Counted from the first letter of the stretch, positions 2,893 through 25,388 are shown. The stretch is DNA of 64,000 bases from a virus (IMGVR_UViG_3300042009_000020:37780-101779), one strand, 5' to 3'. The notes: a model not told the origin generated them from the letters alone. A program made the numbers and translations.

Positions 2893-2895
2893 CTA

Positions 2896-2924
2896 TTGAC
2901 AAACAAATAAAAAACTAGTAGAAT
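2896..2924 (+). promoter_or_regulatory. sigma70-like promoter TTGACA-N17-TAGAAT
   Basis: exact -35 TTGACA (2896-2901), 17-nt spacer, TAGAAT (2919-2924); same class as other promoters in window. Confidence 0.5.
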
Positions 2925-2933
2925 GTATCAAGT

Positions 2934-2968
2934 TACAGGGGAGAGAAATCTTCCCTGTTTTTATTTCT
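2934..2968 (+). terminator. intrinsic terminator/attenuator hairpin
   Basis: ACAGGG..loop..CCCTGT stem followed by TTTTTATTT. Confidence 0.6.
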
Positions 2969-2979
2969 GGAGACAATAA

Positions 2980-3324
2980 ATGGCAAAGACATTTGGTTGG
3001 AAGGTTGAGAGAAGTGTTGACCCAACGAATAAGTTTCGTGTTATTGAAACACAGTTCGGTGACGGGTATAAACAGACATCAGCTGATGGTATCAACACTA
3101 AAGACGAACAGTATGTAATTACTGTCAACGCTTATAAAGTTGAAGCCCAAAAGATTATGGACTTCTTTGATGAACACCAAGGTTGGAAGAGTTTCTTCTG
3201 GACACCACCACTTGGTAAACTATCTTTGTTCACATGTGCTGATCCAAAGCAAACCGAACAAGGTGCTGGTCTGTACAAAATATCAGGTACATTTGTTAAG
3301 AGTTATTCAGCACCCTCATCCTAA
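2980..3324 (+). CDS. M: minor tail protein M (lambda gpM-like)
   Basis: 114 aa, position after tape measure and before L; FWTPP/Gly-rich features of gpM family; RBS GGAG. Confidence 0.75.
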   Translation: MAKTFGWKVERSVDPTNKFRVIETQFGDGYKQTSADGINTKDEQYVITVNAYKVEAQKIMDFFDEHQGWKSFFWTPPLGKLSLFTCADPKQTEQGAGLYKISGTFVKSYSAPSS

Positions 3325-3336
3325 TAAGGAGAAAAT

Positions 3337-4080
3337 ATGGCAATCACCAACATCCTGCAAACGATTCAGAAACTTGAAGTGGGTGCGAAGGTTAAACTGA
3401 TCGAGGTTGACTGCACCGAGTTTGGTGGTGATGTCCTTCGATTCCACAATTACAATGTAGATTATACCCCAGCAGAACTAGCTGCTTTTCAACTTAGTGG
3501 TGCTGAGATTCCACCAAAACCAATCATGTGGAAAGGTGACGCATACACTACATGGCCCTACGTCTTAACTGGTATTGAGTGGGATGGTACGGGTAAAAGC
3601 CCACAACCAACATTGGAAGTTGCAAACGTTGATGGCTCTATTAGCTCGATGTGTCTATTGCTTCAAAACTTGTTTGGTGCAAAAGTAACGGAACATACAA
3701 CTTTCCGTCAGTACCTTTCTGATGGTGAAGATCCCGATGAAACAATGGAGTTCACACAGAGTTGGTATGTTACTCGAAAGAGTGGTGAAAACCAATCAAC
3801 TGTGGCATTTGAGTTGTCTTCACCTGCTGACTTTACAGGTCGTAGTCTTCCACGTCGTCAAATATATTCCATGTGTCACTGGGCAATGAATGGTAACTAT
3901 CGTGGTCCTGATTGTGGTTACACAGGTGTTAGTTACTTCACTGAAAAAGGTGTACCAACAACTAACCCTGCCTTGGATAAATGTGGTGGTCTTTGCCTTG
4001 ATTGCAAACTTCGCTTCGGTGAAGAATCCCCGTTACCATTTGGTGGTTTCATTGCAAGCAGCTTGATTGCGAGGGGTTGA
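3337..4080 (+). CDS. L: minor tail protein L (lambda gpL-like)
   Basis: 247 aa; WPYVLTGIEWDGTG and C-terminal Cys cluster CGGLCLDC..FGGF match gpL Fe-S tail tip protein. Confidence 0.85.
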   Translation: MAITNILQTIQKLEVGAKVKLIEVDCTEFGGDVLRFHNYNVDYTPAELAAFQLSGAEIPPKPIMWKGDAYTTWPYVLTGIEWDGTGKSPQPTLEVANVDGSISSMCLLLQNLFGAKVTEHTTFRQYLSDGEDPDETMEFTQSWYVTRKSGENQSTVAFELSSPADFTGRSLPRRQIYSMCHWAMNGNYRGPDCGYTGVSYFTEKGVPTTNPALDKCGGLCLDCKLRFGEESPLPFGGFIASSLIARG

Positions 4081-4085
4081 TTATT

Positions 4086-4889
4086 ATGATTCCAGATAAG
4101 CTGAATAGTAAGACAATGAAAGATATCATGAAACATGCAAAGGAAGGTTATCCAAACGAGATTTGCGGTGTAGTAATTATTGGTGAAAAAGGCGAGAAGT
4201 ATGTACGGTGTGTAAACATTGCCGAATCGTCTACTGATGAATTCCACATGTGTCCTGACTCTTATATTGATGCTGAAGAACTTGGTACTGTTGTTGGTAT
4301 TGTTCACAGTCATCCAGACGGCACCACACGCCCGTCAAGCCACGATATTGCAGTAATGAGCCGTAACTATGAAGTCCAACTTATCGTTGACCCAGAGAGC
4401 GATCCGGTGCCTTGGCACATCGTTAGTTGGCCTGAAGGTGACTACAGACAAATCATTCCTGAAGTAACTACTAATCTTCTAGATAAACCATTTGTACATG
4501 GAGTATGGGATTGTTGGGCAACCTGTGAATCGTATTATAAGAAGTATCATGGAATTGAGTTTCCACAATATGATCGTAAAGACCGATGGTGGGAAGAGAA
4601 AGAAACAACTTCATTCTATGAAGAGTTCCACAAAGAAGCGGGGTTCTATGAAGTTAATGACTTACAACCGGGTGATATGATTGTCATGCAAATCGGTAGA
4701 AGTTATCACCCAAACCATGCTGGTATTTATCTTGGTGAAGTGTCCGAGTTTGAAGGTCGTCAACTATTTGGTAAAACACTCATGCTTCACCACATGTACG
4801 ACAAGAAAAGTGATGTCATTGTATACGGTGGTCAGTGGCAACAACGCACACGAATGATTCTGAGACATAGAGAGGTGAAACATGTCTGA
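4086..4889 (+). CDS. K: tail tip protein K (MPN/JAB metalloprotease + NlpC/P60 domains)
   Basis: HSHPDGTTRPSSHD JAMM motif, C-terminal CW..C/H NlpC-P60-like; ATG 4086 has GAGGGG SD (ORF track start 4077 is TTG). Confidence 0.85.
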   Translation: MIPDKLNSKTMKDIMKHAKEGYPNEICGVVIIGEKGEKYVRCVNIAESSTDEFHMCPDSYIDAEELGTVVGIVHSHPDGTTRPSSHDIAVMSRNYEVQLIVDPESDPVPWHIVSWPEGDYRQIIPEVTTNLLDKPFVHGVWDCWATCESYYKKYHGIEFPQYDRKDRWWEEKETTSFYEEFHKEAGFYEVNDLQPGDMIVMQIGRSYHPNHAGIYLGEVSEFEGRQLFGKTLMLHHMYDKKSDVIVYGGQWQQRTRMILRHREVKHV

Positions 4890-5493
4890 GGTATGGATTG
4901 AAGTTCAACCCGGTGGTTACCTTAAAAAGTTTGGTAATCACAAATTCCTCGTAAACAATCCTGCTGAAGCAATTAAAGCAATGCTCATGCAAGTAAAGGG
5001 ATTCGAGGCAGCATTTAAAGGTGCTGAAAAGAAAGGTATCAAGTTTGCAGTTAGAACAGAGAAGCGAGATATTACTGCACCAGAGCAACTTCATATGGGT
5101 AAGCCAAAGATTCTCAAGCTTATCCCCAAGTATGCTGGTGGTAAGAATAGTGCTATGACATTCCTTGCTGTAGCTGTAATTATTGCAGCCACTGTGTTTA
5201 CAGCGGGTGCCGCTGGTTTTGGTGCTGGTGCATGGTTCGCAGCAGGTAGTACAAGTGCGGCTATCGCAACATCTATTGCAGTTAGTTTAGCAATTGGTGG
5301 TATTACACAAATGCTTAGTCCTCAACCTGATGGACTATCGACACGTACTGACCCAGATAACAAAGCATCTTATGCTTTCGGTGGTCCTGTAAACACTGCT
5401 GCACAAGGTGTTCCTGTTCCAGTGTTCTACGGATACAGGGAGGTCGGTGGTGCTGTCATCTCGGCTAGCGTTGTATCTGAAGATCAACAATAA
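4882..5493 (+). CDS. I: tail assembly protein I (lambda gpI-like)
   Basis: 203 aa between K and J, N-terminal globular part plus hydrophobic Ala/Gly-rich C-terminal region as in gpI. Confidence 0.7.
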   Translation: MSEVWIEVQPGGYLKKFGNHKFLVNNPAEAIKAMLMQVKGFEAAFKGAEKKGIKFAVRTEKRDITAPEQLHMGKPKILKLIPKYAGGKNSAMTFLAVAVIIAATVFTAGAAGFGAGAWFAAGSTSAAIATSIAVSLAIGGITQMLSPQPDGLSTRTDPDNKASYAFGGPVNTAAQGVPVPVFYGYREVGGAVISASVVSEDQQ

Positions 5494-5510: not shown

Positions 5511-8500
5511 ATGCTTGATTATGAAATTCACGGTGGTAAAGGTGGTGGAGATAAACCACATACCCCTGTTGAAACACCTAATAACCTCCTTTCGGTTGCT
5601 TATGCAAAGGTGTTGATTGCTGTAGCTGAAGGTGAACTTGCTGGTGTTCCAACTAATCAAGACATCTTCCTTGACGGCACTCCACTTGCAAACCCAGATG
5701 GTTCACTTAACTTCGGTGGTGTTAAATGGGAATGGCGTTCGGGTACTCAGGATCAAACCTATATCCAAGGTCTACCAGAAGTATCAACAGAATACAACGT
5801 TGGTGTTGAGCTGAAGTCTACAACCCCTTGGGTTCGTAACATTACAAAGACTGAGCTTGATGGTGTACGTGTAACATTCCAATGGCCTGCTCTCTTGGAA
5901 CAAAAGTCGAATGGTGACACCGTTGGTGTTTCTATGGACTACAAGATCCAATTGTCGAAAGATGGTGGTGCCTTCACTGACTACAAAACATACACCATCA
6001 GTGGTAAAACCAACACAACATATGAACGTACACACCGTATTGATCTACCAAAGGCAACAACCGGTTGGATCATCCGTGCTGTTAAACTTACAGCAGATAC
6101 TACTTCTGGTACAATCCAAGACACAATGACTGTAAAGAGTGTCGCTGAAGTAGTTGACGTAAAACAACGCTATCCAAACACAGCCCTTCTGTATGTTGAA
6201 TTCGACAGTCGTATGTTTGGTGGTGGTTCAATCCCTAAAGTGTCTGTACGAACTAAAGGTCGTGTTATCCGTGTACCTGACAACTATGACCCAGTGGCAC
6301 GTACTTACAGTGGTGTTTGGAGTGGTGCCTTTAAGTGGGCTTGGAGTGATAACCCTGCGTGGGTCTACCACGATATCATTACTCAAGATCGTTTCGGTCT
6401 GGGTAATAAAGTCAGTCTGAACATGGTTGATAAGTGGGCACTCTATGAAATTTCACAACATTGTGATGTCATGGTTGATAACGGTTACAACGTTGGTGTC
6501 CTACAACCACGTCACACATGTAACATCTATATCCAAGAGAAGCGAGATGCTTGGCAAGTGTTGCGTGACATCGCTAGTATATTCAACGGTATGACCTATT
6601 GGAACGGTAATCAGTTTACAGCAATTGCTGACAAACAAGAACCATTCAACAACGCTCCTGTGTTCTCTCGTTCTAATGTAATTAATGGTCGTTTCGATTA
6701 TGCCGCTGCTGATGATAAGAGTATCTACACAAGTGCTCTGGTTAGTTATGATGAACCTGAAAACCATTACAACACAGCAGTGGAATCCACGTTTGAAACA
6801 GAACAGATTCTTCGCTGGGGTGGTGATCGTCAGATTGAAATCAGTGCCATTGGTTGTACATCTCGTGGTGAAGCACAACGTCGTGGTAAGTATGCATTAA
6901 TCACTAACATGTATAACCGTACCGTATCTTTCCGTACAGGTCTTCAAGGTCTGAATGACGAAGTGATGCCGGGTAAGTTGATCCATGTTGTCGACCCACT
7001 TATTGGTGGTCGTCCTTTCACTGGTCGTATTAAAGCTGCTGTTGGTACTGTACTCACACTGGATCGTACTGTTGATGCTGTTGCTGGCGATATCATGTAT
7101 ATCACCAAGTCGGATGGTGTTTCTGAAGGTCGTACAATCTCTGCTGTAGCTGGTAATATCGTTACCCTGCAAGTTGCGTACACAGAGTTACCAAAGCCAA
7201 ACGCTGTATGGTATCTCGAAGCTGCTGACCTCAAGTCGCAGTTGTTCCGTGTAACCAAGATCACTTCGCCAGAAGAGAGTGTGTATGAGATTGAAGGTGT
7301 TGAATACAACGACAGTAAGTATGCAGCAGTTGACACAGGTGCTAGACTTGAACCAAGACCAATCAGCGTAGTTCCACCAAACATTCAACAGCCACCAACC
7401 AATGTTAACATCATTTCTCAGACCTACGTTGAACAAATGATGTCTGTTAACACAATGGTTATCTCTTGGAATCAAACCCAGAATGCTGTTGGTTATGAAG
7501 TACAGTGGAAAGTTGAAAATGGTGACTGGGTAAACGCTGGTACTACTGGTGCTTTGTCTGTTACCGTGAAAGGTATTTACACCGGTCAATATGTTGCTCG
7601 TGTACGTGCTATCAACGCATTCGATATCAAGTCTATTTGGGTTTCAAGTGCACTGACTACACTTAACGGTAAGGTTGGTTTACCACCTGCTTTGACTAGT
7701 CTGTCAGTTGAACCACTTGTTTTTGGTATGAAACTTAACTGGACTTTCCCAGTTGGTGCAGAAGATACTGCTCGTACAGAAATCATGTACAGTCCAACTC
7801 AATTCTTTGCAAGTGCAACTAAGCTGGGTGACTTTGCTTATCCGCAAACGTCGCACTCAATCAATGGGTTGAAGGCTGGTCAGACTTTCTACTTCTGGGG
7901 TAGGTTGGTAGATAGAACCGGTAATATTGGTCCTTACTTCCCACTGACTACACAGAATGGTGTGATGGGTCTGTCGAGTACGGATGTTGCAGAGTATGAA
8001 GAATACTTCATAGACATGATCAACGAGTCTGCCCTTGGTCAACAACTTGGTGCGAAGATCGATAAGATTGAAATCATTGAAGCTGATCTTGATTTGGTTG
8101 AGATTGATCTTGATTTGGTTAAGACAGATGTTGATCAGATTAAGACTGATGTTGTGCAACTCGAAGTTGAATTTGATACAGCGATTGACAAGGTTAACAC
8201 TAACGTCAACTGGATCGAATCACAAATTGCAGGTGTAGAGCTTCAGTTGAAGAATGACCTTGTTATCACTCAAGGGGAACTTCAGACCAACCTTGATGAA
8301 CTTCAGGTTGACTTGGAAGCAGTAGACCAGATACTTGCTGATGCACTCGTTACCACTAAGAAAGATGTTGATGATATCAAAGAAGATGTTGTTGGTTTAA
8401 ACACTACTATTGATACTCTTCAGGATCAGGTTGATGGTATTACTGATGCATTGGAATACAACCCGAACAGAACATATGCTGCTGGTGAAGCCACACGTGT

Positions 8501-11500
8501 AGGAAACAATCTTTACCAAGCCACACAAAGTGTACCACTCGACACATCTCCACCAAATGCTACATACTGGAAAAATGTGGGTGAGGTCATCACTGCATAT
8601 GATGCGTTGGCTTCTCAGGTATCCACTAACACCACTAACATCACACAACAGGGTAATACACTCACTACCCAAGCTGGTCAGTTAACAGCTTTGACAACCC
8701 GAGTAAATACTGCTGAAGGTAACATCACTGGTAACAGTACAGCGATCACCAACCTTCAAACAACAGTGACCACACAAGGGAACAGTATTACCTCTCAAGG
8801 GAGTTTGATTACCGGTCTTCGGTCTGATGTAACTAGTCTGCAAACCGGACAATCTGGTAATGCTTCAGCGATCACTTCGTTAACCACACGAGTTACAACC
8901 GCCGAAGGAACGATTACTTCACAAGGTCAGTCAATTACTTCACTCAACGCCACTGTTGGGACTTTACAAACTGACTTAAATGGTGTAGAATCTACCGTAC
9001 TAGGACAGGGAACGGCCATTAATGGATTGACAACTACGGTCACCCAGCAAGGCAACACCCTTACTTCCCACGGTACAAGTATCACAGCACTTGAGAACAG
9101 TGTTTCGGATATCCAAACAGATGTATCTGGATTGACAACCACTGTTACCGGTCAAGGTACTTCCATCACCAATTTGCAAAACACTGTAACTCAGCAAGGT
9201 AACACAATCACAGCTCAGGCTCAGGACATTACAACCCTGAAATCTGATGTGTTGATTGATAAGACTGATATCAGCGGGCTCAAGACTACAACGACAGCAC
9301 AAGGTACTGCGATTACAAACTTGCAGACGACTGTGACCTCCCAAGGGAACAGCATCACATCAAACAGCAACAGTATCACCAACCTGACCAGCGATCTTCA
9401 CTTCAATGAATTGGATGCTCTCTACGAAGGTAATGAAACTGATGCTCAAATTGCTGATGCATTGGTCATCTCAAAAGCTACAGCTTCCGCAACAGAATCT
9501 CTGACAACGACAGTAACTTCTCATGAAGGTATTATCACAGCACAAGGTCAATCAATTACAGACTTGAAGGCTGCTCTTGAAGATTCGGATGGTAATATTG
9601 TTGGTCAAGCTAGTGCAATCGAGAGTCTTAAAACCAGTGTCACTCAACAAGGTAATACAATCAACTCACAAGGTGCTAGCATTACCAGTCTGGATAACAG
9701 CTTGGCAACCACTAACACCAATGTGGATGCTGCCCAACAAGCAGCAACTGATGCCAATACATTAGCTGGTGGAAAGGGTAAAGTATTCTTCCAAGCTTCG
9801 GCTCCTGCTGTTGGTGAGCAATTAAGTCAGAACCTTTGGATTGATACTACCGGGAACGCAAACACGCCTAAACGCTGGAATGGCTCGGCATGGGTAGCTG
9901 TAACTGACAAGGTAGCGACTGACGCTGCAACAGCAGCTGCTAACGCACTTACTCAAGTAGCTACAAAGGCTGATGCTTCAGCAGTGACGGCATTGACAAC
10001 CCGAGTAACTAACGCAGAAGGAACGATTACTTCACAAGGCACAAGCATCACCAGCTTGAACAACAGCCTGACAGTCACTAACACTAACGTGACAGCAGCT
10101 CAGAACGCAGCTCAGGCTGCTAGTGATCTTGCTGGTATCAAAGGTGAAGTGATCTACGGAAGCACAGCACCAACAACTGCACAACGTCTGCCTCAAAACC
10201 TTTGGATTGATACCACAAGTGGAGCAAACACTCCGAAGAGATGGTTGACGAACGCTTGGGTAGTTGTAACTGATAAAGTGGCTACAGACGCAGCAGCCGC
10301 TGCTGCAAGTGCTTTGACACAAGTTGCAACCAAAGCTGAAGCTAGTGCAGTAACATCGTTAACAACTCGCGTGACAAGTGCAGAGGGAACGATTACTTCC
10401 CAAGGTACAAGCATTACCAACCTGAACAACAGTTTGACGACTACCAATACCAACGTTAGTGCTGCACAAACAGCAGCTCAAGCTGCCAGTGATCTTGCTG
10501 GTACTAAAGGTAAGGTTCTGGTACAAACTACAACACCTGTTACCGCTGATCAACTTCCACAGAACTTGTGGATTGACATCACCAGCAGCAACAACACTCC
10601 TAAGAGATGGAACGGAAGTGCGTGGGTTGTGGTAACTGACAAGGTTGCTACTGATGCAGCAGCAGCCGCTGCTAATGCTTTGAGTGTTGCCAATACAAAG
10701 GCTGATGCATCTGCACTTAATGCCTTGACTACACGGGTTACCTCTGTTGAAGGTGTCACCACTTCACAAGGTTCTAGTATCACCACGTTGACAAACAACC
10801 TCAGTACCACTAACACCAACGTTACAGCCGCTCAGGCAGCAGCAGACGCTGCTAACACTCTTGCTGGTGGAAAGGGTAAGGTGTTCTATGGAAGTACAGC
10901 CCCTGCTACAGCAGAGCGTTTGAGTCAGAACCTCTGGATTGATACAACTGGTGGTTCTAACACACCTAAAAGATGGGATGGTTCAGCATGGACTGCTGTA
11001 ACTGATAAAGTGGCTACAGATGCCGCCATTGCTGCTGCTAACGCTTTAAGTGTTGCTAACACCAAGGCTGATGCCTCTGCTGTGACAGCTCTGACAAGTC
11101 GTGTAACAACGGCTGAAGGTAGTATCAGTTCACAGGGTACAAGCATTACAACGCTGAACAACAGTCTGACAACCACTAACAACAATGTAACCGCTGCTCA
11201 GGCTGCTGCTCAGGCCGCATCTGACCAAGCCGGTGCTAAAGGTGAAGTGATCTATGGTAGTACTGCTCCAGCAGTTGAGAAACGTCTTCCACAGAACTTG
11301 TGGATCGACACCACTGGTAATGCAAACACTCCTAAACGTTGGTTGACAAACGCATGGGTTGTGGTAACCGATAAGGTAGCTACTGATGCTGCAACAGCAG
11401 CAGCTAACGCACTTGCTCAGGTTGCTCTCAAAGCAGATAGTACAGCACTCACAGCTTTGACAAACACTGTTACCCAACAAGGTACTGACATCTCAGCGAA

Positions 11501-14500
11501 CGCTGGTAACATCACCATACTCAATACGGAGGTTCATTTCCAAGAGTTGGATGAATTGTACGCTGGTAATGAAACAGACGCCCAGATTGCAGACGCATTG
11601 ATGATTGCAAAAGGTACTGCTTCTGCTAACGAGTCATTGACTTCGGAAGTTACACAGCAGGGTGATTTGATTAAGGCTCAGGCCGAAAGCATTACTGACC
11701 TTGCATCGTCGTTGTCCTCAGTTGATGGTGATGTTTCTGCTCAAGGTGTTGCGATTGAAAATCTGAAAACTGTCACAACAGCTCAAGGCAATACAATCAA
11801 CTCTCAGAGTACAAGTCTCACGTCGTTGACCAACTCGTTGACCGTTACTAACACCAATGTCACAGCTGCGCAAACCGCTGCTGATGCTGCAAACACGTTA
11901 GCCGGTGGTAAAGGTAAGGTTATCGTCCAGAACGCAGCACCTGATGTTGCAGACAGGTTGGCACAGAACCTCTGGATCGACACCACTAGTGGAGCGAACA
12001 CTCCTAAAAGATGGTTGACTAGTGCATGGGTTGCAGTGACAGACAAAGTAGCTACCGATGCAGCAGCCGCTGCGGCAAGTGCACTTAGTCAAGTTGCAAC
12101 TAAGGCTGAAGCCAGTGCATTGACTTCATTGACCACTCGTGTGACAAGTGCTGAAGGAACAATAACAACTCAAGGTCAATCAATTACAACCTTGAACAAC
12201 TCTCTAACTACAACTAACACTAATGTGACAGCCGCTCAGGCTGCTGCGGATGCAGCGAATACATTAGCTGGTGGAAAGGGTAAAGTTATTGTTCAAACCG
12301 CTGCTCCAGCAGTTGGTGATCGACTTGCTCAGAACTTGTGGATTGACATTACAGGTAATGCTAATACCCCGAAACGTTGGGATGGAAGTGCTTGGACTGC
12401 TGTTACCGATAAGGTAGCTACTGATGCAGCAGCAGCCGCTGCTAACGCATTGAGTGTTGCTAACACTAAAGCAGACGCTTCAGCTGTAACGGCTCTGACA
12501 AGTCGTGTAACTACTGTAGAAGGCACTGTAACAACTCAGGGTCAAAGTATTACAACTCTGAATAACAGTCTGACTACTACCAATACCAATGTCACTACTG
12601 CTCAGGCAGCAGCTGATGCCGCTAACACCCTTGCGGGTGGTAAAGGTAAGGTGATGGTTCAAAGTGCTGCACCGGCTGTCGGAGATAGACTTGCTCAAAA
12701 CCTTTGGATTGATACAACAGGTAACGCCAATACTCCAAAGAGATGGGACGGTAGCAACTGGACTGCTGTGACTGACAAAGTGGCAACAGATGCAGCAGCC
12801 GCTGCTGCTAACGCCTTGAGTGTTGCTAATACTAAAGCTGATTCGTCAGCGGTATCAAGTTTGACAACACGAGTTACAACTGCTGAAGGTTTGATCACAA
12901 GTCAAGGTTCAAGTATTACTTCGCTGAATAACAGTCTGACTACTACTAACACTAACGTGACAACAGCTCAAAACGCTGCACAAGCTGCTAGTGATTTGGC
13001 TGGTAGTAAAGGCAAAGTGTTCTATCAAACTGCTGAACCTGCTGTTGGTGAAAGACTGTCGCAAAACCTTTGGATAGACATCACTGGTGCTGCAAATACA
13101 CCTAAGCGGTGGAACGGCAGTGCATGGGCAGCTGTAACTGATAAAGTGGCTACTGATGCAGCTACAGCTGCTGCAAGTGCGTTGACACAAGTAGCAACTA
13201 AAGCGGATGCTTCGGCATTGACAGCCTTGACTAACACTGTGACCTCCCAAGGTACTAGTATTACAACCAACGCTAGCAATATCACCCTGCTCAATACTGA
13301 CGTTCACTTTCAAGAGTTGGATGAGTTGTATGTCGGTAATGAAACTGATGCTCAAATTGCTGATGCGTTGATGATCGCTAATGGTGCTGCTTCTGCCAAT
13401 GAGTCGTTGACTGCTGAAGTTACACAACAAGGGGATCTGCTCACGGCTCAGGCTGTAATGATCACAGACCTTTCGAGTGAACTTTCTAATGTTGACGGTG
13501 ATGTGGTTGCCCAAGGGACGGCTATTGAAAACCTGAAAACTGTAACAACAGCACAAGGTAATACAATCAATTCCCACGGTGTATCGATCACATCTCTCAC
13601 TAACCGTGTGACAAGCGCTGAAGGTAACATCACGGGTCAAGCTACTGCTCTATCTGCTCTGGATACAAGAGTAACATCAACCGAAGGTACAGTGACTTCC
13701 CAAGGCACTAGTATTACAAGTTTGACAAGCTCCCTCGCCACAACCAACACTAACGTCACAACAGCCCAGAACGCAGCCAACGCTGCGAATACATTGGCTG
13801 GTGGTAAGGGTAAGGTTCTGGTACAAACCACAACGCCAGTGACAGCTGATCAACTCGTACAGAACCTTTGGATAGACATCACTGGTAGTGCGAACACGCC
13901 AAAACGTTGGAATGGTTCAGCTTGGGTTGCCGTGACAGATAAGGTAGCTACTGATGCAGCAGCCGCCGCTGCTAACGCTCTCTCAGTAGCAAACACCAAA
14001 GCTGATGCTGGTGCTGTAACCACTTTGACAACTCGTGTAACCAACGCTGAAAACAGTATCACTGCCTCGGCAACGAAGCTTGATGGTGTCTACGCTCAAG
14101 TTAACCCTACACTTGCTGGTGACGATGTTGGTCTTGCTGGTTCTGATAGTTATATGGTTGGTGTCTGGTCTGAAACCTCTGCTCGTATTGAGGATGGTGT
14201 TGTTTTGGGTTCACGTGTTGATACTGTTCAAGTTTCTAGTGATCAGGCGTTGACACTGGCTGAAGCTAACACTGCTGCTGTTCAACAAGTGTCACAAGCA
14301 CAGGTTGATGCAGACGGTAGAGCAAGCGCAATGTGGTCTGTCAAGTTGCAAGTTAACCAGTTCGGTCAGTATGTTACAGCTGGTATTGGTCTTGGTATTG
14401 AGAACGGTCCTGCTGGTCTGCAAAGTACATTCTTGGTGAACGCTGATACATTCGCAATCACTAACGGTGTTGATGCAAACCTAAGTGCACCATTTGTAGT

Positions 14501-14753
14501 GAATGGTGGTCAAGTATTCATCAAAGACGCATTCATTGCCAACGGTAGTATTACAATGTTGAAGATTGGAGACACTCTGCAATCTGATGACTTTGTTGCC
14601 GGTATCCAAGGATGGAGGTTGACTAAAGCTGGTACATTTGAAATCAACGGTCATGTACCCGGACAAGGTACAATGGTTATGACTAACCGCTCTTTGAGAG
14701 TATATGACGTAAACAACGTCAAGCGTGTGCAACTTGGGGATCTATCGGAATGA
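5511..14753 (+). CDS. J: host specificity / central tail fibre protein J, massively repeat-expanded (3080 aa)
   Basis: N-terminus (GGKGGG..HTP..NLLSV) and first ~900 aa align with lambda gpJ incl. FN3 domain; then ~1800 aa of Thr/Ala/Ser-rich tandem repeats; distinct C-terminal domain. Confidence 0.9.
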   Translation: MLDYEIHGGKGGGDKPHTPVETPNNLLSVAYAKVLIAVAEGELAGVPTNQDIFLDGTPLANPDGSLNFGGVKWEWRSGTQDQTYIQGLPEVSTEYNVGVELKSTTPWVRNITKTELDGVRVTFQWPALLEQKSNGDTVGVSMDYKIQLSKDGGAFTDYKTYTISGKTNTTYERTHRIDLPKATTGWIIRAVKLTADTTSGTIQDTMTVKSVAEVVDVKQRYPNTALLYVEFDSRMFGGGSIPKVSVRTKGRVIRVPDNYDPVARTYSGVWSGAFKWAWSDNPAWVYHDIITQDRFGLGNKVSLNMVDKWALYEISQHCDVMVDNGYNVGVLQPRHTCNIYIQEKRDAWQVLRDIASIFNGMTYWNGNQFTAIADKQEPFNNAPVFSRSNVINGRFDYAAADDKSIYTSALVSYDEPENHYNTAVESTFETEQILRWGGDRQIEISAIGCTSRGEAQRRGKYALITNMYNRTVSFRTGLQGLNDEVMPGKLIHVVDPLIGGRPFTGRIKAAVGTVLTLDRTVDAVAGDIMYITKSDGVSEGRTISAVAGNIVTLQVAYTELPKPNAVWYLEAADLKSQLFRVTKITSPEESVYEIEGVEYNDSKYAAVDTGARLEPRPISVVPPNIQQPPTNVNIISQTYVEQMMSVNTMVISWNQTQNAVGYEVQWKVENGDWVNAGTTGALSVTVKGIYTGQYVARVRAINAFDIKSIWVSSALTTLNGKVGLPPALTSLSVEPLVFGMKLNWTFPVGAEDTARTEIMYSPTQFFASATKLGDFAYPQTSHSINGLKAGQTFYFWGRLVDRTGNIGPYFPLTTQNGVMGLSSTDVAEYEEYFIDMINESALGQQLGAKIDKIEIIEADLDLVEIDLDLVKTDVDQIKTDVVQLEVEFDTAIDKVNTNVNWIESQIAGVELQLKNDLVITQGELQTNLDELQVDLEAVDQILADALVTTKKDVDDIKEDVVGLNTTIDTLQDQVDGITDALEYNPNRTYAAGEATRVGNNLYQATQSVPLDTSPPNATYWKNVGEVITAYDALASQVSTNTTNITQQGNTLTTQAGQLTALTTRVNTAEGNITGNSTAITNLQTTVTTQGNSITSQGSLITGLRSDVTSLQTGQSGNASAITSLTTRVTTAEGTITSQGQSITSLNATVGTLQTDLNGVESTVLGQGTAINGLTTTVTQQGNTLTSHGTSITALENSVSDIQTDVSGLTTTVTGQGTSITNLQNTVTQQGNTITAQAQDITTLKSDVLIDKTDISGLKTTTTAQGTAITNLQTTVTSQGNSITSNSNSITNLTSDLHFNELDALYEGNETDAQIADALVISKATASATESLTTTVTSHEGIITAQGQSITDLKAALEDSDGNIVGQASAIESLKTSVTQQGNTINSQGASITSLDNSLATTNTNVDAAQQAATDANTLAGGKGKVFFQASAPAVGEQLSQNLWIDTTGNANTPKRWNGSAWVAVTDKVATDAATAAANALTQVATKADASAVTALTTRVTNAEGTITSQGTSITSLNNSLTVTNTNVTAAQNAAQAASDLAGIKGEVIYGSTAPTTAQRLPQNLWIDTTSGANTPKRWLTNAWVVVTDKVATDAAAAAASALTQVATKAEASAVTSLTTRVTSAEGTITSQGTSITNLNNSLTTTNTNVSAAQTAAQAASDLAGTKGKVLVQTTTPVTADQLPQNLWIDITSSNNTPKRWNGSAWVVVTDKVATDAAAAAANALSVANTKADASALNALTTRVTSVEGVTTSQGSSITTLTNNLSTTNTNVTAAQAAADAANTLAGGKGKVFYGSTAPATAERLSQNLWIDTTGGSNTPKRWDGSAWTAVTDKVATDAAIAAANALSVANTKADASAVTALTSRVTTAEGSISSQGTSITTLNNSLTTTNNNVTAAQAAAQAASDQAGAKGEVIYGSTAPAVEKRLPQNLWIDTTGNANTPKRWLTNAWVVVTDKVATDAATAAANALAQVALKADSTALTALTNTVTQQGTDISANAGNITILNTEVHFQELDELYAGNETDAQIADALMIAKGTASANESLTSEVTQQGDLIKAQAESITDLASSLSSVDGDVSAQGVAIENLKTVTTAQGNTINSQSTSLTSLTNSLTVTNTNVTAAQTAADAANTLAGGKGKVIVQNAAPDVADRLAQNLWIDTTSGANTPKRWLTSAWVAVTDKVATDAAAAAASALSQVATKAEASALTSLTTRVTSAEGTITTQGQSITTLNNSLTTTNTNVTAAQAAADAANTLAGGKGKVIVQTAAPAVGDRLAQNLWIDITGNANTPKRWDGSAWTAVTDKVATDAAAAAANALSVANTKADASAVTALTSRVTTVEGTVTTQGQSITTLNNSLTTTNTNVTTAQAAADAANTLAGGKGKVMVQSAAPAVGDRLAQNLWIDTTGNANTPKRWDGSNWTAVTDKVATDAAAAAANALSVANTKADSSAVSSLTTRVTTAEGLITSQGSSITSLNNSLTTTNTNVTTAQNAAQAASDLAGSKGKVFYQTAEPAVGERLSQNLWIDITGAANTPKRWNGSAWAAVTDKVATDAATAAASALTQVATKADASALTALTNTVTSQGTSITTNASNITLLNTDVHFQELDELYVGNETDAQIADALMIANGAASANESLTAEVTQQGDLLTAQAVMITDLSSELSNVDGDVVAQGTAIENLKTVTTAQGNTINSHGVSITSLTNRVTSAEGNITGQATALSALDTRVTSTEGTVTSQGTSITSLTSSLATTNTNVTTAQNAANAANTLAGGKGKVLVQTTTPVTADQLVQNLWIDITGSANTPKRWNGSAWVAVTDKVATDAAAAAANALSVANTKADAGAVTTLTTRVTNAENSITASATKLDGVYAQVNPTLAGDDVGLAGSDSYMVGVWSETSARIEDGVVLGSRVDTVQVSSDQALTLAEANTAAVQQVSQAQVDADGRASAMWSVKLQVNQFGQYVTAGIGLGIENGPAGLQSTFLVNADTFAITNGVDANLSAPFVVNGGQVFIKDAFIANGSITMLKIGDTLQSDDFVAGIQGWRLTKAGTFEINGHVPGQGTMVMTNRSLRVYDVNNVKRVQLGDLSE
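8630..14060. repeat. hierarchical in-frame tandem repeats inside J
   Basis: ~10 copies of a 363-369 bp unit (NLWIDTTGNANTPKRW.GSAWV.VTDKVATDAA..) at 9833,10196,10559,10928,11291,11958,12327,12696,13062,13863, grouped in three super-repeats, each preceded by a ~300-bp variant segment (HF.ELD.LY.GNETDAQIADAL); shorter QG.SIT.L heptad-like repeats from ~8640. Confidence 0.9.
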
Positions 14754-15079
14754 GTTTTGGAATGAGAACATGGAGCGCCAGTGGCGCTCCTGAGGTTGAC
14801 ACGGGTAACTTTACATATCAAGTTATCCACAATCAAGTTTATCAATTAACAGTGAATGCTACTATTACAGTACCCATTTCTGGATTTAGTCCCTCAACGT
14901 GTGTTGCCGTAATCTTACCTACACAGGCACCTACAGCAGAAAATAGTTTGAACGCACTTCCATATCAAACAGTTGGTGAGGGAGTTGTAACAATCAAGTC
15001 TCGTAACCCAAGTGAGCCATCTTCTACGATTGGTTCTGCTATTGAGTTTAGGCTTTTAGTGATGAGGTATGCAAATTGA
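14750..15079 (+). CDS. hypothetical tail-associated protein
   Basis: 109 aa ORF overlapping J stop (ATGA), same operon. Confidence 0.5.
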   Translation: MSFGMRTWSASGAPEVDTGNFTYQVIHNQVYQLTVNATITVPISGFSPSTCVAVILPTQAPTAENSLNALPYQTVGEGVVTIKSRNPSEPSSTIGSAIEFRLLVMRYAN

Positions 15080-15768
15080 CATTCGGACTGACGGTATCCA
15101 ACGATACTAACTACATACAGATTGATTCTGAAACACCAAGGTTGTGTTCATTGTTTAATGGTGCTTATCAAGCGGTAGGTACACACATTGCAACTGTAAC
15201 TTTCCCAGCAGCAATTACAACAAGTGAACCACCGTGCATTTTCATAAGAAATGACCCAAGTAGACCGAATGACTTGTATAAACAAATGGTACTGAGTGGT
15301 GGTTCGGGTAACTGGACAGGGTTTCAAATCATAGCTGGTAACAGTACACATAGACCATTGGGGAAATGGTTTGCTGCGGCATTTGCATCACTGGCAAATT
15401 CTTCATACGGTCTTCGTATTTGGGCTGCAAATGGTGGCTTGTGTTACGACTCGGGTGCTGTTCCTGTAATTGTAACTAAAGCAAACCACTCTTGGTCCTA
15501 TCAGGGTAGCGTACAACTCCCTGATTATGGTGCTCAGTATTATTATAGGAATGAACTGGTTTCTACGCTTCAATCCGATGAGTATTTTATGATTAATCCT
15601 TTCTCGCGAGGGGTTCTAACCCCACAAAGCATGAACTGGACTGACGTTGGTATTAGGTTCAACTACACAGAAAATAGATTGCAGTTATATATGGTGGCTG
15701 TTGGTTCTGGTCCGTGGACTGATCAGGGTCAACCCGCTGCTGTATTCGCCCGACTACCGGGAACTTAA
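15076..15768 (+). CDS. hypothetical tail-associated protein (TTG start)
   Basis: 230 aa ORF, TTG overlapping preceding stop (TTGA); no internal ATG for 70 codons. Confidence 0.5.
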   Translation: MTFGLTVSNDTNYIQIDSETPRLCSLFNGAYQAVGTHIATVTFPAAITTSEPPCIFIRNDPSRPNDLYKQMVLSGGSGNWTGFQIIAGNSTHRPLGKWFAAAFASLANSSYGLRIWAANGGLCYDSGAVPVIVTKANHSWSYQGSVQLPDYGAQYYYRNELVSTLQSDEYFMINPFSRGVLTPQSMNWTDVGIRFNYTENRLQLYMVAVGSGPWTDQGQPAAVFARLPGT

Positions 15769-15785: not shown

Positions 15786-16361
15786 ATGGCTAAACAAACA
15801 ACAGTTGCCACCACAACAGGTGGTGTATGGACCACTCTTGTATCTGGTGAATGTACAGTGGCAGCTCTTGTAGCCAACGCCACCGTAGACAGTACCCTTG
15901 TATCACTGAGAGTCACATTGACCGGTGGTACATTCTCATACATTCTACCACTGAACACGCTCCCATTGAATACACCAGCACGACTGGCTGTTGGTGGTAT
16001 TTCACTTAAAACAGGCGACAAACTTGAAGCCATGTCTAGTACTGGCGTTCAATGGATGACAACAACTATTACCGGTGCTGCGTATTCGAGTGCCATTGTT
16101 ACCAGTCCAAGTAATGAAGCTTGGACAACGTTGAAGACTGGACCAGCAACAGTTAGGGCATTGTTCCTCAGTGCACCATCTGGTGGTAGTTTTGGTGTTA
16201 GACTGCATAAGACAACATCAGACACATCGATTGTACTAAGTGAAGAACTTACTGCTGGTGGTAGTAAACGACTAATGGTTCCTGTTGTACTTGCTGCCAC
16301 TGAAAGCATTCAAGTTAAAGGAACCGCAACAGCTTATTGGATTGCAACAGGAGTAGAATGA
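15786..16361 (+). CDS. hypothetical protein, Thr/Val/Ala-rich, likely structural
   Basis: 191 aa, GGAG SD, between J and large fibre gene. Confidence 0.5.
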   Translation: MAKQTTVATTTGGVWTTLVSGECTVAALVANATVDSTLVSLRVTLTGGTFSYILPLNTLPLNTPARLAVGGISLKTGDKLEAMSSTGVQWMTTTITGAAYSSAIVTSPSNEAWTTLKTGPATVRALFLSAPSGGSFGVRLHKTTSDTSIVLSEELTAGGSKRLMVPVVLAATESIQVKGTATAYWIATGVE

Positions 16362-16362
16362 T

Positions 16363-19300
16363 ATGAGTACAATGGGTTTTGTTTCTACATTGAATGGAGC
16401 GGAAGATGCCGCTTCTCTTAACCTTGACTTCAAGAATCAAAAATATAAAGTGAGTGGTGTAAATAAGACGTTCAATGACTTGATCACGTTTACACGAGCT
16501 TCTGTTGGTGGTCGCTGGAATGCCAGTGGTGTTTATGAAGTGCTGCCGAATAACCAACCACGGTTTGATTATGACCCAATTACAAAGGTATTGAAAGGTT
16601 TACTTGTTGAGGAGCCTCGTACCAATTGGTTAACATATTCTAATGATTTAAGTAATGCTGCTTGGGTAAAAGTTAACTCAACACTAAACCCATCTTCCGC
16701 CGTATCGCCAGAGGGGTTACTGAATTCCGATATGGTAATAGAGAATACAGTCAGTACCAACCACGGGTTCAGCAGAGATATCACAGTGGTATCGGGTCTT
16801 ACATATACTGTTTCATTTTTCATCAAAGAGGCTGGACGCAACCTAGTAAGACTTCGACTCGGCCAAGCAGGTGGTGTTAGTGGTACAATCATAAGTGATG
16901 CTAACTTTGATCTGAATACAACCACATTTATTAGCGGTTTCTCTGCAACATCACCAACAATTGTAGATGTTGGTAGTGGTTGGAAAAGGATTTCATTAAC
17001 AGCAGTCGCCGCCAGCGCAACACTTGGGATTTCCGTGCTGTTCATAGATACAGGAACTAACGTATCATATGCTGGTAATGGTGTTTCTGGTGTTTCCTTC
17101 TATGGTATGTGTGTGGAATCTGGATCATTCTCAACGTCATACATCCCGACACCAACAATATTCACATCTCGTTCATCTACAGCAACATACTTTGATACAA
17201 ATGGTGTGATACAAACTGCCGATGTCAACGTAGCCCGTAGTAACGCTTACGGATATGATTCAACTGGGGTGATTAAGCCTATAGGTTTGCTGGTTGAAGC
17301 AGCCGCAACAAATATGCTTACCGCAAGTTCAAAGTACGATGACTCATCTTGGACTAAAGTAGCAAGTACCGTCGCGAGAGCTACAGAACCTGACCCAACT
17401 GGAACGCTCGATGCTTGGGCACTCAAACCATCAGCTGGTACGGGTGTGGTTGGTAGGATTTCAAAGCCATACTCTGCTGTATCTGGTACAACATACACGT
17501 TGAGTGTTTATGCTAAAAAGAAGGAGATTAGCTTCCTTAGATTACTAACGACAATTGACGGTACAGCAACTGTTCCACAAGCGCATTTTGATTTGAGTTC
17601 ATTGGTGACAGGTTCTGTTACAGCTTCAACGGCAATCGTTACTGGAGCTTCTAATGAGTGGGTAAGATGCAGTATTACATTCGTGGCACCAGTCACTGGT
17701 GCTGGTGTTGTATTCATTCAAGCGGCCACCAGCCTTACCACAGGAGCATACACAGGTGACGGCACACCCTCTGTCATCCTTTCATTAGCACAACTTGAAA
17801 CAGGAACGCTCAGTTCTTACATTCCAACCCCAGTAGTATTCACCAGTCGCGCATCAACTGCAACATATATCGGTTCAGATGGACTGCTGCAAACTGCTGC
17901 TGTAAACATTCCACGGATTGATTATGATCCTGTGAGTAAGATCAGCAAAGGACTATTGGTTGAAGCGGCGGCAACTAACCTTGCCACATATACAACAGCA
18001 CTACACAGGTCTTGGGCTGCTACTTATGTAGCTATTGTTCCTTATGATACAGTTTCCCCTGATGGTACACTCACTGGCGCCCGCCTTGTTGAAACAATAG
18101 CGGATAACGAGCATCGTCTTTACACTGCTAGTATTCCTGTTACATCAGGACTAACATACACTGGATCAATTTGGGTAAAAGCCGGATCGAGACGATATGC
18201 GTATCTTCACTTCTCCAACATTGGTTCATGGGGAACAGACACAACAATGTCTGCGAAGTTTGACACACTAACTGGTACAATTTTAGCAGCTGGTAGTGCT
18301 GTAATCGCTAAAGTAGAAACAGGACCGAACGGATGGTTCCGACTCATCATCACATCAACTGCTATATCTTCATCGCCATCCAGCGGAATGAGTATTGGTA
18401 TGTGCGACGATAGTGCCGCTGTATTGGGGCGTGACTACTATCTAGGTGATGGTAATAGTTTTATCCACATTTGGGGACCACAGTTTGAACAAGGATCATC
18501 TCCTACTTCTTACATTCCAAGTGTTGATACATTCTCCAGTCGCGCATCAACAGCTACATATATGGATGAAAATGGTGTACTGCAAACTGCATTATCTGGT
18601 GTGTCACGGGAAAACTCTTACGGGTATGATTCTACAGGTTCAATCAAACCTATTGGGTTGATGATTGAAGATTCTCGTACTAACATCTTAACTCACTCAA
18701 CTGTCCCTAACTTTGTGGCAACATGGTCAACAACTGGTGGTCTCGGTGTATTAGGGGGTCAACAGGCACCTGATGGTAGTTACACTGCTGTTGACATCAT
18801 TGAGGGTGGTTATACTGCTCAGCATGAAATCTTGCGGTTCTACACACCGACTTCTGGATTTAATTACACACACTCTGTTTACATCAAAAAGGTGAACAGG
18901 AAGTATGGTTACTTGTCAGCTTACTCATCTTCTGCGTCAAACACCTTCTTGGTTGATTTGGACACGGGTGATATTGTACAGAGTTGGACTTCTGGTTCCA
19001 TAGGAACAATGGCTCCGGTTCGTAAAGTTGAGCGAGCTGGTAATGGTTGGTGGAGACTTTCGTTAACACATACTGCCGTTAACGCAAACAACATCTACAT
19101 TATTGCTGGTGGCTCAGATTCATTAAGTCCGGGCTTGGTTAATACACGACCTTCATATTTGGGTAGTGGTATGGTGGGTGTAAGTATATGGGGACCACAG
19201 TGTGAGGTCGGTGCTGGGGTAACCACATACATTCCAACACCAGTAACATTCGCAAGTCGCGCTTCTACAGCAACATACTTTGATATCAATGGTGTATTGC

Positions 19301-20547
19301 AAACAGCAGCATCAGGTGTAGCACGAGAAAGTGCGTATGTGTATGACTCGGTTGGTGTATTGAAACCAGTCGGACTGTTGTTGGAAAGTCCTGCAACTAA
19401 CCTCACACTACAGTCTAATTCAGACACGACAATTATCGCAACGCGAGCAACATACACATCAACCGGTCAATTGTTTGTTGATGGTATAACACCATTACGT
19501 CTACTCAAGGAAGACAATACGGTAACTAGCAGTCACTTCGGACAACCACTTAACGTTACACTTGCAGCAAGTACCTATTATACTGGTAGTTACTTTGTAA
19601 AGGCTGCTGGACGAACTAAACTTTGCCTCCAAGCAGTTAACAGTGGTTCATGGTTACCTTCTAGCCCAAGGGTTGATTTTGACTTAACCGCTGGTACAGC
19701 GATTGGTAGCTTTGGTGCAACCGGAACAATTCAGAAAATGTCTGGTGGTATCTATCGAATTACGATAACAGCCACCACTGGTGCGTCAGGAGTCGCTTCG
19801 GCATTCTACCCTGTTCTAATTAACGATAGTGGATTGACTGTCTACAGTGGCGACGGTAGCTCTGGAATTTACATTGGTGGTTATCAGATTGAATTAGGTT
19901 TGGTTGCTACTTCGTATATTCCTACTGCTGGTGCTGCTGTTACTCGTGCTGGTGACGGAGTTACATCGTCAACAGTAACACGGGCTGCTGATGTTACATC
20001 CTCGGCTCAAGTAACACGGGCTGCTGATGTGTACACGTCACCAACAGTAACGCGGGCAGCTGATGTTACTTCATCTGTAACAGTAACACGTGCTGCCGAC
20101 ATTGCAAGTGTTAACAACTTGTCACCGTGGTTAAACGTCAATGAAGGTACTTTGTGCATTTCTATGTTGGAACGGAAGCCGTCGGCTAGTAGCACATTCC
20201 CATTGTCACTGGGTGTAGACTCAAACAACTACATTGGTCTTGCTTACGCGCCCGGTGGTGCAGGTCAGAGCGGTGCCGCATACATCCGTAAGGCTGGTGC
20301 GGGTGGATCTACATCTGATTCATCGTTAAGACTTAAAGTGGCTGCTGCATGGGATGCAACTCAGTTTTCTTCTGCGTCAGATGGTACGTCCAGAGGTACA
20401 GTCACTCACTCAGGTGTTCCAGTTCCAGTTTCAATGTACATAGGTCGTGGGCATTTCGGTGGAAGTACCACTAACAACCACATTCGGGACATCAAATATT
20501 ATCCATTGAAGCTGTCTAACTCAACAATGGAGGCACTTACTTTGTAA
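16363..20547 (+). CDS. modular tail fibre / receptor-binding protein with four tandem ~225-aa modules
   Basis: 1394 aa; motif S.YIPTP..F.SR.STATY.D.NGVLQTA....R...YGYDS.G.IKPIGLL.E..ATN recurs four times (~17150,17820,18490,19200) each followed by a ~170-aa beta-rich putative carbohydrate-binding module; 12-aa VTRAADVTSS repeats near the C-terminus. Confidence 0.75.
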   Translation: MSTMGFVSTLNGAEDAASLNLDFKNQKYKVSGVNKTFNDLITFTRASVGGRWNASGVYEVLPNNQPRFDYDPITKVLKGLLVEEPRTNWLTYSNDLSNAAWVKVNSTLNPSSAVSPEGLLNSDMVIENTVSTNHGFSRDITVVSGLTYTVSFFIKEAGRNLVRLRLGQAGGVSGTIISDANFDLNTTTFISGFSATSPTIVDVGSGWKRISLTAVAASATLGISVLFIDTGTNVSYAGNGVSGVSFYGMCVESGSFSTSYIPTPTIFTSRSSTATYFDTNGVIQTADVNVARSNAYGYDSTGVIKPIGLLVEAAATNMLTASSKYDDSSWTKVASTVARATEPDPTGTLDAWALKPSAGTGVVGRISKPYSAVSGTTYTLSVYAKKKEISFLRLLTTIDGTATVPQAHFDLSSLVTGSVTASTAIVTGASNEWVRCSITFVAPVTGAGVVFIQAATSLTTGAYTGDGTPSVILSLAQLETGTLSSYIPTPVVFTSRASTATYIGSDGLLQTAAVNIPRIDYDPVSKISKGLLVEAAATNLATYTTALHRSWAATYVAIVPYDTVSPDGTLTGARLVETIADNEHRLYTASIPVTSGLTYTGSIWVKAGSRRYAYLHFSNIGSWGTDTTMSAKFDTLTGTILAAGSAVIAKVETGPNGWFRLIITSTAISSSPSSGMSIGMCDDSAAVLGRDYYLGDGNSFIHIWGPQFEQGSSPTSYIPSVDTFSSRASTATYMDENGVLQTALSGVSRENSYGYDSTGSIKPIGLMIEDSRTNILTHSTVPNFVATWSTTGGLGVLGGQQAPDGSYTAVDIIEGGYTAQHEILRFYTPTSGFNYTHSVYIKKVNRKYGYLSAYSSSASNTFLVDLDTGDIVQSWTSGSIGTMAPVRKVERAGNGWWRLSLTHTAVNANNIYIIAGGSDSLSPGLVNTRPSYLGSGMVGVSIWGPQCEVGAGVTTYIPTPVTFASRASTATYFDINGVLQTAASGVARESAYVYDSVGVLKPVGLLLESPATNLTLQSNSDTTIIATRATYTSTGQLFVDGITPLRLLKEDNTVTSSHFGQPLNVTLAASTYYTGSYFVKAAGRTKLCLQAVNSGSWLPSSPRVDFDLTAGTAIGSFGATGTIQKMSGGIYRITITATTGASGVASAFYPVLINDSGLTVYSGDGSSGIYIGGYQIELGLVATSYIPTAGAAVTRAGDGVTSSTVTRAADVTSSAQVTRAADVYTSPTVTRAADVTSSVTVTRAADIASVNNLSPWLNVNEGTLCISMLERKPSASSTFPLSLGVDSNNYIGLAYAPGGAGQSGAAYIRKAGAGGSTSDSSLRLKVAAAWDATQFSSASDGTSRGTVTHSGVPVPVSMYIGRGHFGGSTTNNHIRDIKYYPLKLSNSTMEALTL
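19939..20109. repeat. 36-nt (12-aa) tandem repeat x ~4.75 inside fibre gene
   Basis: GTAACACGGGCTGCTGATGTTACATCCTCGGCTCAA-like units encoding VTRAADVTSSxx. Confidence 0.85.
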
Positions 20548-25200: not shown

Positions 25201-25388
25201 TCACCATCCATATCAAGTTCTAGTTGTACGTCAAGCTCTTGCTCAAGCTTTTCAATATCTGATGACAACTCTTGGGTTACAAAGATTGCTTCACCAAAAC
25301 CATCACAGTTCTCGATATCGTCAAGTCGCTGACGAATACGTTGTAGTTCAATATACCAAGATGTTCCGTAGTCACGAATGTTCATCAT
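25197..25388 (-). CDS. hypothetical acidic protein
   Basis: 63 aa, overlaps neighbours by 4 nt. Confidence 0.4.
   Translation of the reverse strand: MMNIRDYGTSWYIELQRIRQRLDDIENCDGFGEAIFVTQELSSDIEKLEQELDVQLELDMDGD

Follow-up and report, generated by a model that had tools for sequence, protein, structure and literature searches.

A J-type central tail fibre with nested repeats of a predicted coil-and-knob module, from a phage related to Pseudomonas phages phiPMW and vB_PpS_SYP

The site and manner in which non-contractile phages and F-type tailocins engage a cell are determined by their J-type central fibres. The scaffolds of these fibres carry a coiled coil "of varying lengths" according to a structure atlas of tail fibres (10.1101/2024.10.28.620165), and in the central fibre of the F7 pyocin a coil of 163 residues switches its fold to a beta-prism (PMC12874032). 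The same study predicts coil-to-prism switching, with the motif SxSxxMxxLxS, in 21 of 24 siphophage central fibres. Homologs of PyoF11 and PyoF12 are always encoded just 3' of the central-fibre gene and have been modelled on the fibre tip (10.1101/2021.02.16.431561, PMC12874032), and a "very large" tail fibre was noted for phage phiPMW, the tail of which measures 166 nm (PMC5587285). The J gene described here comes from viral DNA of 64,000 nucleotides (IMGVR_UViG_3300042009_000020:37780-101779; the whole stretch is called the window below) and shows how far modular growth extends the coiled-coil segment, whose mechanical activity has lately been demonstrated in one pyocin. It is a single uninterrupted open reading frame (ORF) at 5511–14753 which encodes 3,080 amino acids (aa); it and all of its segments given below lie on the plus strand. 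A long J protein is no great surprise in itself; what deserves attention is the repeat module, its nested organisation, the predicted tail-length fibre and a possible link to fold switching.

The closest solved relative of both the hub and the distal end of this protein is the F-type pyocin fibre (PyoF10; F2 pyocin 25vf). The N-terminal tail-tip hub with its FNIII domains, recognized through PDB sequence matches (residues 1–860, nucleotides 5511–8090), aligns over residues 5–855 with the F2-pyocin fibre [3e-255, 25vf] and over residues 10–857 with lambda J [2e-106, 8iyk], so that on sequence the F-pyocin central fibre is a nearer relative of the protein than lambda J is. The hub is also 62–68% identical to the hubs of the J homologs in Pseudomonas phages phiPMW (gp143) and vB_PpS_SYP. 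The original prediction of a lambda gpJ homolog is borne out by the match of the N-terminal 855 residues to 8iyk, by Pfam FNIII-A_GpJ [residues 92–216, 142.9 bits, cut-off 27] and Phage_Tail_Tip [DUF1983; residues 2923–3054, 143.7 bits, cut-off 22], and by PHROG 31, "central tail fiber J", which is matched with an E-value of 0; the second PHROG match is 2589 (tail protein, profile of 3,686 positions). The score against NCBIfam lambda_TipJ [NF049904] is 479, below the curated cut-off of 1950, and the protein is therefore a relative within the lambda J family and not the lambda protein proper.

As in lambda, the gene follows those for a tape measure protein (TMP) as well as for proteins resembling gpM, gpL, gpK and gpI (76–5493; PHROGs 14, 18, 30 and 32), and this TMP-M-L-K-I-J order recurs in four of the loci compared (L001, L002, L127 and L128). 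The TMP gene (1–2892, plus strand) is truncated at the window's left edge, its first 120 nucleotides having no in-frame stop; the ORF of 938 aa is a minimum, TMP being about 1,320 aa in relatives.

Lambda J (1,132 aa, length from the PDB table) also has a homologous hub, FNIII domains and a Phage_Tail_Tip domain near its C-terminus. Unlike it, the protein of the window has some 2,000 residues of coil and knob repeats between the FNIII and tip domains, and is 2.7 times longer. The distal end, delimited through Pfam and PDB matches (14004–14753), consists of a last coil and linker (residues 2832–2922) and the Phage_Tail_Tip domain (residues 2923–3054, nucleotides 14277–14672). The last 170 or so residues match the ends of J-like fibres, namely 9l9p_S [2e-24], 25vf and residues 835–932 of lambda J; for the last 401 residues the match to 25vf has an E-value of 1.4e-19. 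Because only 26 residues remain after the tip domain, the protein lacks a C-terminal receptor-binding domain of the lambda type, the alignment to lambda J stopping at residue 932 of 1132.

The extra length is due to nested in-frame repeats, as had been proposed for 8630–14060 (residues 1040–2850, approximately). We place the repeat region at residues 1034–2831, where a heptad array of 263 residues is followed by ten units of 122 aa. A text dot-plot of the protein against itself, the check that had been suggested, gives nested parallel diagonals, and over residues 1041–2860 the self-identity is 0.435 at a lag of 122, 0.447 at 590 and 0.414 at 712, where the background is 0.10. Each of the motifs NLWID, NTPKRW and VTDKVATDAA occurs exactly ten times, at spacings of 122, 122, 122, 122, 224, 122, 122, 122 and 266, and the header HF.ELD..Y.GNETDAQIADAL occurs three times (residues 1297, 2009 and 2599). 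These positions define three super-repeats of 5+4+1 units with one header per group. A group boundary adds 102 aa (33 before the HF and 69 after it), which agrees with the segment of about 100 aa per super-repeat described earlier; the last boundary adds 144 aa. The ten units foreseen by the original prediction are thus present, with a length of 122 rather than 121 aa, and they are not near-identical: any two share 61–90% of their amino acids (mean 72%) and 61–74% of their nucleotides (about 66% overall). The two later headers share 83% at the amino acid and 74% at the nucleotide level. A high content of Thr and Ala had also been remarked upon, and it is found (Ala 19.6% and Thr 17.2% in residues 1410–2860; Thr 22.6% in residues 1040–1410).

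Super-repeat 1 (residues 1297–2008, nucleotides 9399–11534) is made up of a header (9399–9605), units 1–5 (9606–11435, 366 nucleotides each) and a 33-aa linker (11436–11534). Super-repeat 2 (residues 2009–2598, 11535–13304) likewise has a header (11535–11741), units 6–9 (11742–13205) and a linker (13206–13304), and super-repeat 3 (residues 2599–2831, 13305–14003) a header (13305–13511), 42 aa of extra coil (13512–13637) and unit 10 (13638–14003). Tandem Repeats Finder reports the array only in part (period of 366 nucleotides, 73–75% matches), since the DNA copies have diverged. Many long ORFs run antisense to the repeats on the minus strand between 8397 and 13640, for example one of 243 aa with a TTG start at 12909–13640; they are by-products of the Ala- and Thr-rich repeats and ought not to be annotated as genes.

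The array that precedes the first header, the region previously described by its QG.SIT.L pattern (residues 1034–1296, nucleotides 8610–9398), was characterized by autocorrelation and Fourier analysis. Its top autocorrelation lags (49, 98, 91, 42, 63, 84, 14 and 7) are all multiples of 7, the super-period being 49 aa or 7x7, and the hydrophobic Fourier power is 8.1 at 3.5 residues and below 0.3 at neighbouring periods. A periodicity of 3.5 residues that stays so sharp over all 263 residues is characteristic of a heptad coiled coil without breaks. Pfam coiled-coil families (SlyX, ATG16 and Fez1) are matched here below threshold.

A structure prediction for the unit had also been proposed. AlphaFold2, given the alignment of the ten copies, returned a helix (residues 2–53), four strands (60–63, 77–80, 87–91 and 96–98) and a second helix (102–121) with a mean pLDDT of 81. 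A model of the knob alone from 61 diverse copies has the same four strands and a core pLDDT above 90. The prediction for the unit is thus some 74 residues of coiled coil into which a four-stranded beta knob of about 48 residues is inserted. In the knob, P18, W29, W42 and W47 do not vary among the 61 copies. Conservation over 484 unique units, taken from 191 proteins, is highest in the knob, with a majority-residue frequency of 0.82 versus 0.57 in helix A, a difference which is partly imposed by the motif used in collecting the units.

The profile of the unit matches gp26, the tail needle of P22, in its trimeric coiled coil [6e-7, 4lin; also 3c9i and 2poh], the unit helix ..LTTRVT.AEG.I.S....I..L... 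being aligned with the coiled-coil repeat of gp26. The full unit aligns weakly along the coil, beta-helix, coil order of gp26, and the knob is not demonstrably its triple beta-helix. Gp26 is a tail plug of 233 aa and not a J protein; the similarity is local and gives no basis for membership. A search for phage-fibre-repeat families, suggested with the original prediction, came out negative: no curated Pfam, NCBIfam or PHROG family covers the unit, the knob or the header. All curated matches of the unit or knob are below threshold (DUF2510, E-values of 0.015–0.08, and the coiled-coil families DUF16 and SlyX), DUF2510 being touched by only 5 of the 61 knob sequences, and Foldseek found nothing in the PDB below an E-value of 2 for the knob model.

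The age of the repeats can be read from their DNA. Synonymous sites between units are near saturation (mean pS 0.70), and at conserved residues the same codon is used with a frequency of 0.448, versus the 0.417 that codon usage by itself would give. The median dN/dS is about 0.13, with a mean pN of 0.21. It follows that the duplications are old and that every copy is under purifying selection. The array would accordingly be the outcome of ancient duplication, kept by selection on the protein. Within the 9.2-kb gene exact DNA repeats reach 32 bp at most, which together with the divergence of the units leaves little substrate for homologous recombination or for collapse by an assembler, so that fast copy-number instability is not expected for this gene. 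The instability that had been foreseen is therefore not supported for the gene itself, and a hypervariable contingency repeat is rejected on the DNA divergence of the units. On the evolutionary scale it is supported, relatives having from none to 11 units; copy number would shift over evolutionary time and not act as a fast switch. The tuning of host range, or of the reach through a capsule or S-layer, is a conjecture of the original prediction. That a unit array can expand is shown by the homolog in a prophage of Pseudomonas sp. PDM29, the seven units of which were recently duplicated (up to 98% nucleotide identity, with an exact repeat of 236 bp). Old, synonymously scrambled repeats beside recently duplicated prophage units make a case for the study of repeat persistence in recombination-prone phage genomes. 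Close relatives for a comparison of copy number were sought with the C-terminal 249 aa in IMG/VR and metagenome contigs, taken with 10-kb flanks; the best match was 60% identical and almost none of the loci had two or more units.

The unit is widespread. Against 1.84 billion cluster representatives its profile gave 1,497 matches at E-values of 1e-3 or less and 275 at 1e-30 or less. Many of the unit-bearing matches are TipJ-family proteins of 2,000–3,300 aa from prophages of the Pseudomonas putida group and Shewanella, in which units with a pitch of 122 or 131 aa alternate with CBM-like domains of about 200 aa; units of shorter pitch (61–85 aa) exist too. The 120 best homologs have 0–7 units. 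Another protein, P0121 (3,098 aa, from an ENA metagenome), has 11 units arranged as 3+3+4+1 with four headers and the same spacing of 224 aa across headers; its hub is only distantly related (47% identity overall), and its tail operon is syntenic. Lengths of 3,000 aa or more are found in 40 of the 262 relatives fetched, with a maximum of 5,454 aa, and only two of the 262 have at least ten knobs. A very long central fibre rich in Thr and Ala is the natural structural expectation, but to call its length extraordinary overstates the case: the protein is an extreme but not a unique member of its kind. For all its abundance, the unit lacks a curated family and a solved structure, and we found no study of it.

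Annotation would gain if the unit were defined: the J gene is overlooked in at least one phage record of GenBank. In that record (MZ496292, Pseudomonas phage PARCL1pr; L003/L004) a J gene for about 2,490 aa spans the record origin and is unannotated, antisense ORFs being annotated in its place as hypothetical proteins. The PARCL1pr protein has five of the 122-aa units interleaved with other domains.

How might such a fibre be built? We favour, as somewhat better than an even proposition, a modular trimeric coiled-coil shaft in which the knobs are nodes of registry or trimerisation and receptor binding is distal. The family and PDB matches, the gene order, the heptad periodicity, the resemblance of the helices to gp26, the AlphaFold2 models, the conservation of the knob, the age of the repeats under selection and the variable number of units, at an unchanged pitch of 122 aa, in relatives all speak for it, as does the nested layout of P0121; the trimeric state, the length, the node function and the site of receptor binding are inferences. 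The N-terminal 860 residues would build the tail-tip hub, and the last 160 or so the conserved distal end of the fibre. The most likely role of the knobs would be that of periodic nodes by which a coil that is only weakly hydrophobic and rich in Thr, Ser and Ala could fold in register and remain stiff, comparable to the neck or connector inserts of trimeric autotransporter stalks or to foldon-type domains. Those stalks (for example of BadA, AtaA and YadA) are very long, trimeric coiled-coil rods of tandem modules with small beta connectors, and their repeat number sets their length; the analogy with the protein of the window is a functional one. The shaft would set the distance between the tail and the receptor-binding tip. 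With about 1,420–1,480 helical residues at 0.148 nm plus the knobs it would, if straight and fully helical, extend over roughly 210–240 nm, and it is probably as long as the tail, whether this is taken as the 166 nm of phiPMW or as that set by a tape measure of about 1,320 aa. Receptor binding probably involves the C-terminus of J and two small proteins encoded directly downstream (109 aa, 14750–15079, and 230 aa, 15076–15768, both on the plus strand), which by analogy with the pyocins are candidate tip-bound partners. Those who engineer fibres or tailocins would then have in the unit a candidate for a natural "length ruler" and trimerisation node, and a definition of the unit would allow one to ask whether fibre length tracks the thickness of the host surface layer.

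Several points weigh against the shaft with structural nodes. The AlphaFold2 predictions are of the monomer, and the length of the shaft presumes that it is straight and helical throughout. The likeness of the two downstream ORFs to PyoF11 and PyoF12 is one of position and size only. Three invariant Trp in a beta domain of about 40 residues, where Asp, Asn and Arg are conserved as well, would be in keeping with a sugar-binding site too, and the 200-residue domains which alternate with units in many Pseudomonas prophage homologs match CBM_4_9, which fits an adhesive shaft equally well.

These last two points lead to a different reading of the knobs, which we rate at perhaps one chance among four: they would be adhesin modules, ten lectin-like knobs and a CBM5/12-like insert making up a multivalent, low-affinity, glycan-binding "fishing line" by which the cell is caught through its O-antigen, exopolysaccharide or capsule before the tip meets its receptor. 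The insert in question (residues 985–1033, ALEYNPNRTYAAGEATRVGNNLYQA...PPNATYWKNVG, nucleotides 8463–8609) has a Pfam match to CBM_5_12 with an E-value of 0.056, below the cut-off, and the knob itself carries a weak DUF2510-like RW.G..W motif. Receptor-binding surfaces normally diversify, however, whereas the knob is nearly invariant across hosts (Pseudomonas, Shewanella and metagenomes), and no known lectin or CBM family was matched above threshold. The insert, of about 49 aa, follows the pattern Y..G..V......LYQA...VP....PPN..YW..VG, resembles chitin-binding types and is flanked by two helical stretches; its motif is also found in the J homologs examined, and one homolog from NCBI (P0098) bears the source name "Carbohydrate-binding family V/XII." The stretch on its proximal side is an acidic helical segment (residues 861–984, nucleotides 8091–8462), identified through composition, periodicity and coiled-coil matches. 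It is rich in Asp, Val and Leu, has its hydrophobic periodicity maximum near 3.6 residues and gives weak matches to coiled-coil families such as Snapin_Pallidin and SMC/Rad50. A helical segment is present at this position in relatives too.

Much less probable, in our opinion, is a coil that is metastable as in the F7 pyocin. After tip binding it would switch to a beta-prism, shortening the fibre about three-fold and pulling the tail tip to the envelope or opening it. The shaft would be a spring-loaded "retractable tether" in which segments convert, possibly seeded at the knobs, so that a fibre of about 230 nm becomes several-fold shorter; the number of repeats would then govern how far the fibre reaches and how much energy it stores, an idea to which we give an equally small chance. 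The hub and C-terminus are indeed closest to an F-pyocin fibre, most siphophage central fibres in the F7 study are predicted to switch, and a fibre of this length needs some means of bringing the tail to the cell. Read in either direction, the SxSxxMxxLxS motif is more frequent in the heptad array and super-repeats 1 and 2 than in composition-matched shuffles (z of 3.5–5.0), but the same is expected of any heptad coil whose flanking residues are small. In the stretch that leads directly into the tip domain, the location of the switch in F7, there is no enrichment (residues 2832–2925, one match versus 2.1 expected, z of −0.7). AlphaFold2 gives helices with good confidence, and folded, conserved knobs every 122 residues would break a continuous prism. 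Fold switching and side-fibre docking have been shown for the pyocin, its coil of 163 residues contrasting with some 1,400 helical residues interrupted by ten knobs in the protein of the window.

Finally, that the repeat region is an expanded or chimeric assembly artefact, or the gene not expressed as one protein, is very hard to credit: the window is a single assembly and the only other public contig found for the gene (1.5 kb) begins inside super-repeat 3, as short-read assemblies break in the repeat region, but no exact repeat exceeds 32 bp, the frame is open for 9.2 kb with every unit under purifying selection, the same architecture occurs in independent assemblies (P0121 on L127, P0001 on L128 and NCBI prophages), and that contig (1,556 bp, JGI sample 3300042013) matches window positions 13585–15140, the 3' end, at 99.94%. 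The artefact is rejected upon the DNA divergence of the units and this independent contig.

The modularity of the shaft is also supported by the nearest isolated phages, phiPMW and vB_PpS_SYP, which share the gene order and have a similar G+C content (0.46 and 0.43, respectively; the window, 0.43). Their J proteins, of 1,922 and 1,439 aa respectively, have shafts of coiled-coil repeats without the NLWID/NTPKRW knob, and the protein of the window is 1.6 to 2.1 times longer. The phage is a new one of roughly 100 kb related to these two, and its host is probably Pseudomonas or a relative. It is new at the nucleotide level: among 50,697 phage records megablast with the J gene matched only vB_PpS_SYP, with 5% coverage, and with 24 kb from elsewhere in the window (34000–58000) nothing. 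The exact J protein is absent from a collection of 5.8 billion proteins, the best match being 75% identical over 57% of the query; a fragment of 381 aa identical to its C-terminus was found in the database search. No tRNA genes were found in the window.

The start and stop codons of J and of the 109- and 230-aa ORFs overlap. The two small products belong to PHROGs 4047 and 3370, of unknown function, and are homologous to those of the two ORFs directly after J in the PDM29 prophage [9e-9 and 2e-29]. Two small genes directly 3' of the fibre gene are also a feature of the F-type pyocins, in the form of PyoF11 and PyoF12. In L127 the ORFs after J encode 99 and 221 aa, while in L128 the order differs (229, then 94 aa). 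A search of the PDB with both products gave no match.

Further downstream an ORF of 191 aa with no family (15786–16361) precedes one of 1,394 aa (16363–20547, plus strand) encoding a "tail protein" which matches PHROG 5939 in six stretches and CBM_4_9 weakly. Faint repeats recur within it at lags near 230, 457 and 696 aa, and it is probably a side fibre. Its counterpart in L127, in a similar position after J, has 884 aa and a faint CBM_4_9 match. Between 24000 and 30000 the GC skew goes negative and a block of leftward ORFs (for example 25385–26527 and 26912–28450) stands amid rightward genes; these ORFs are probably an early or regulatory module with divergent transcription.

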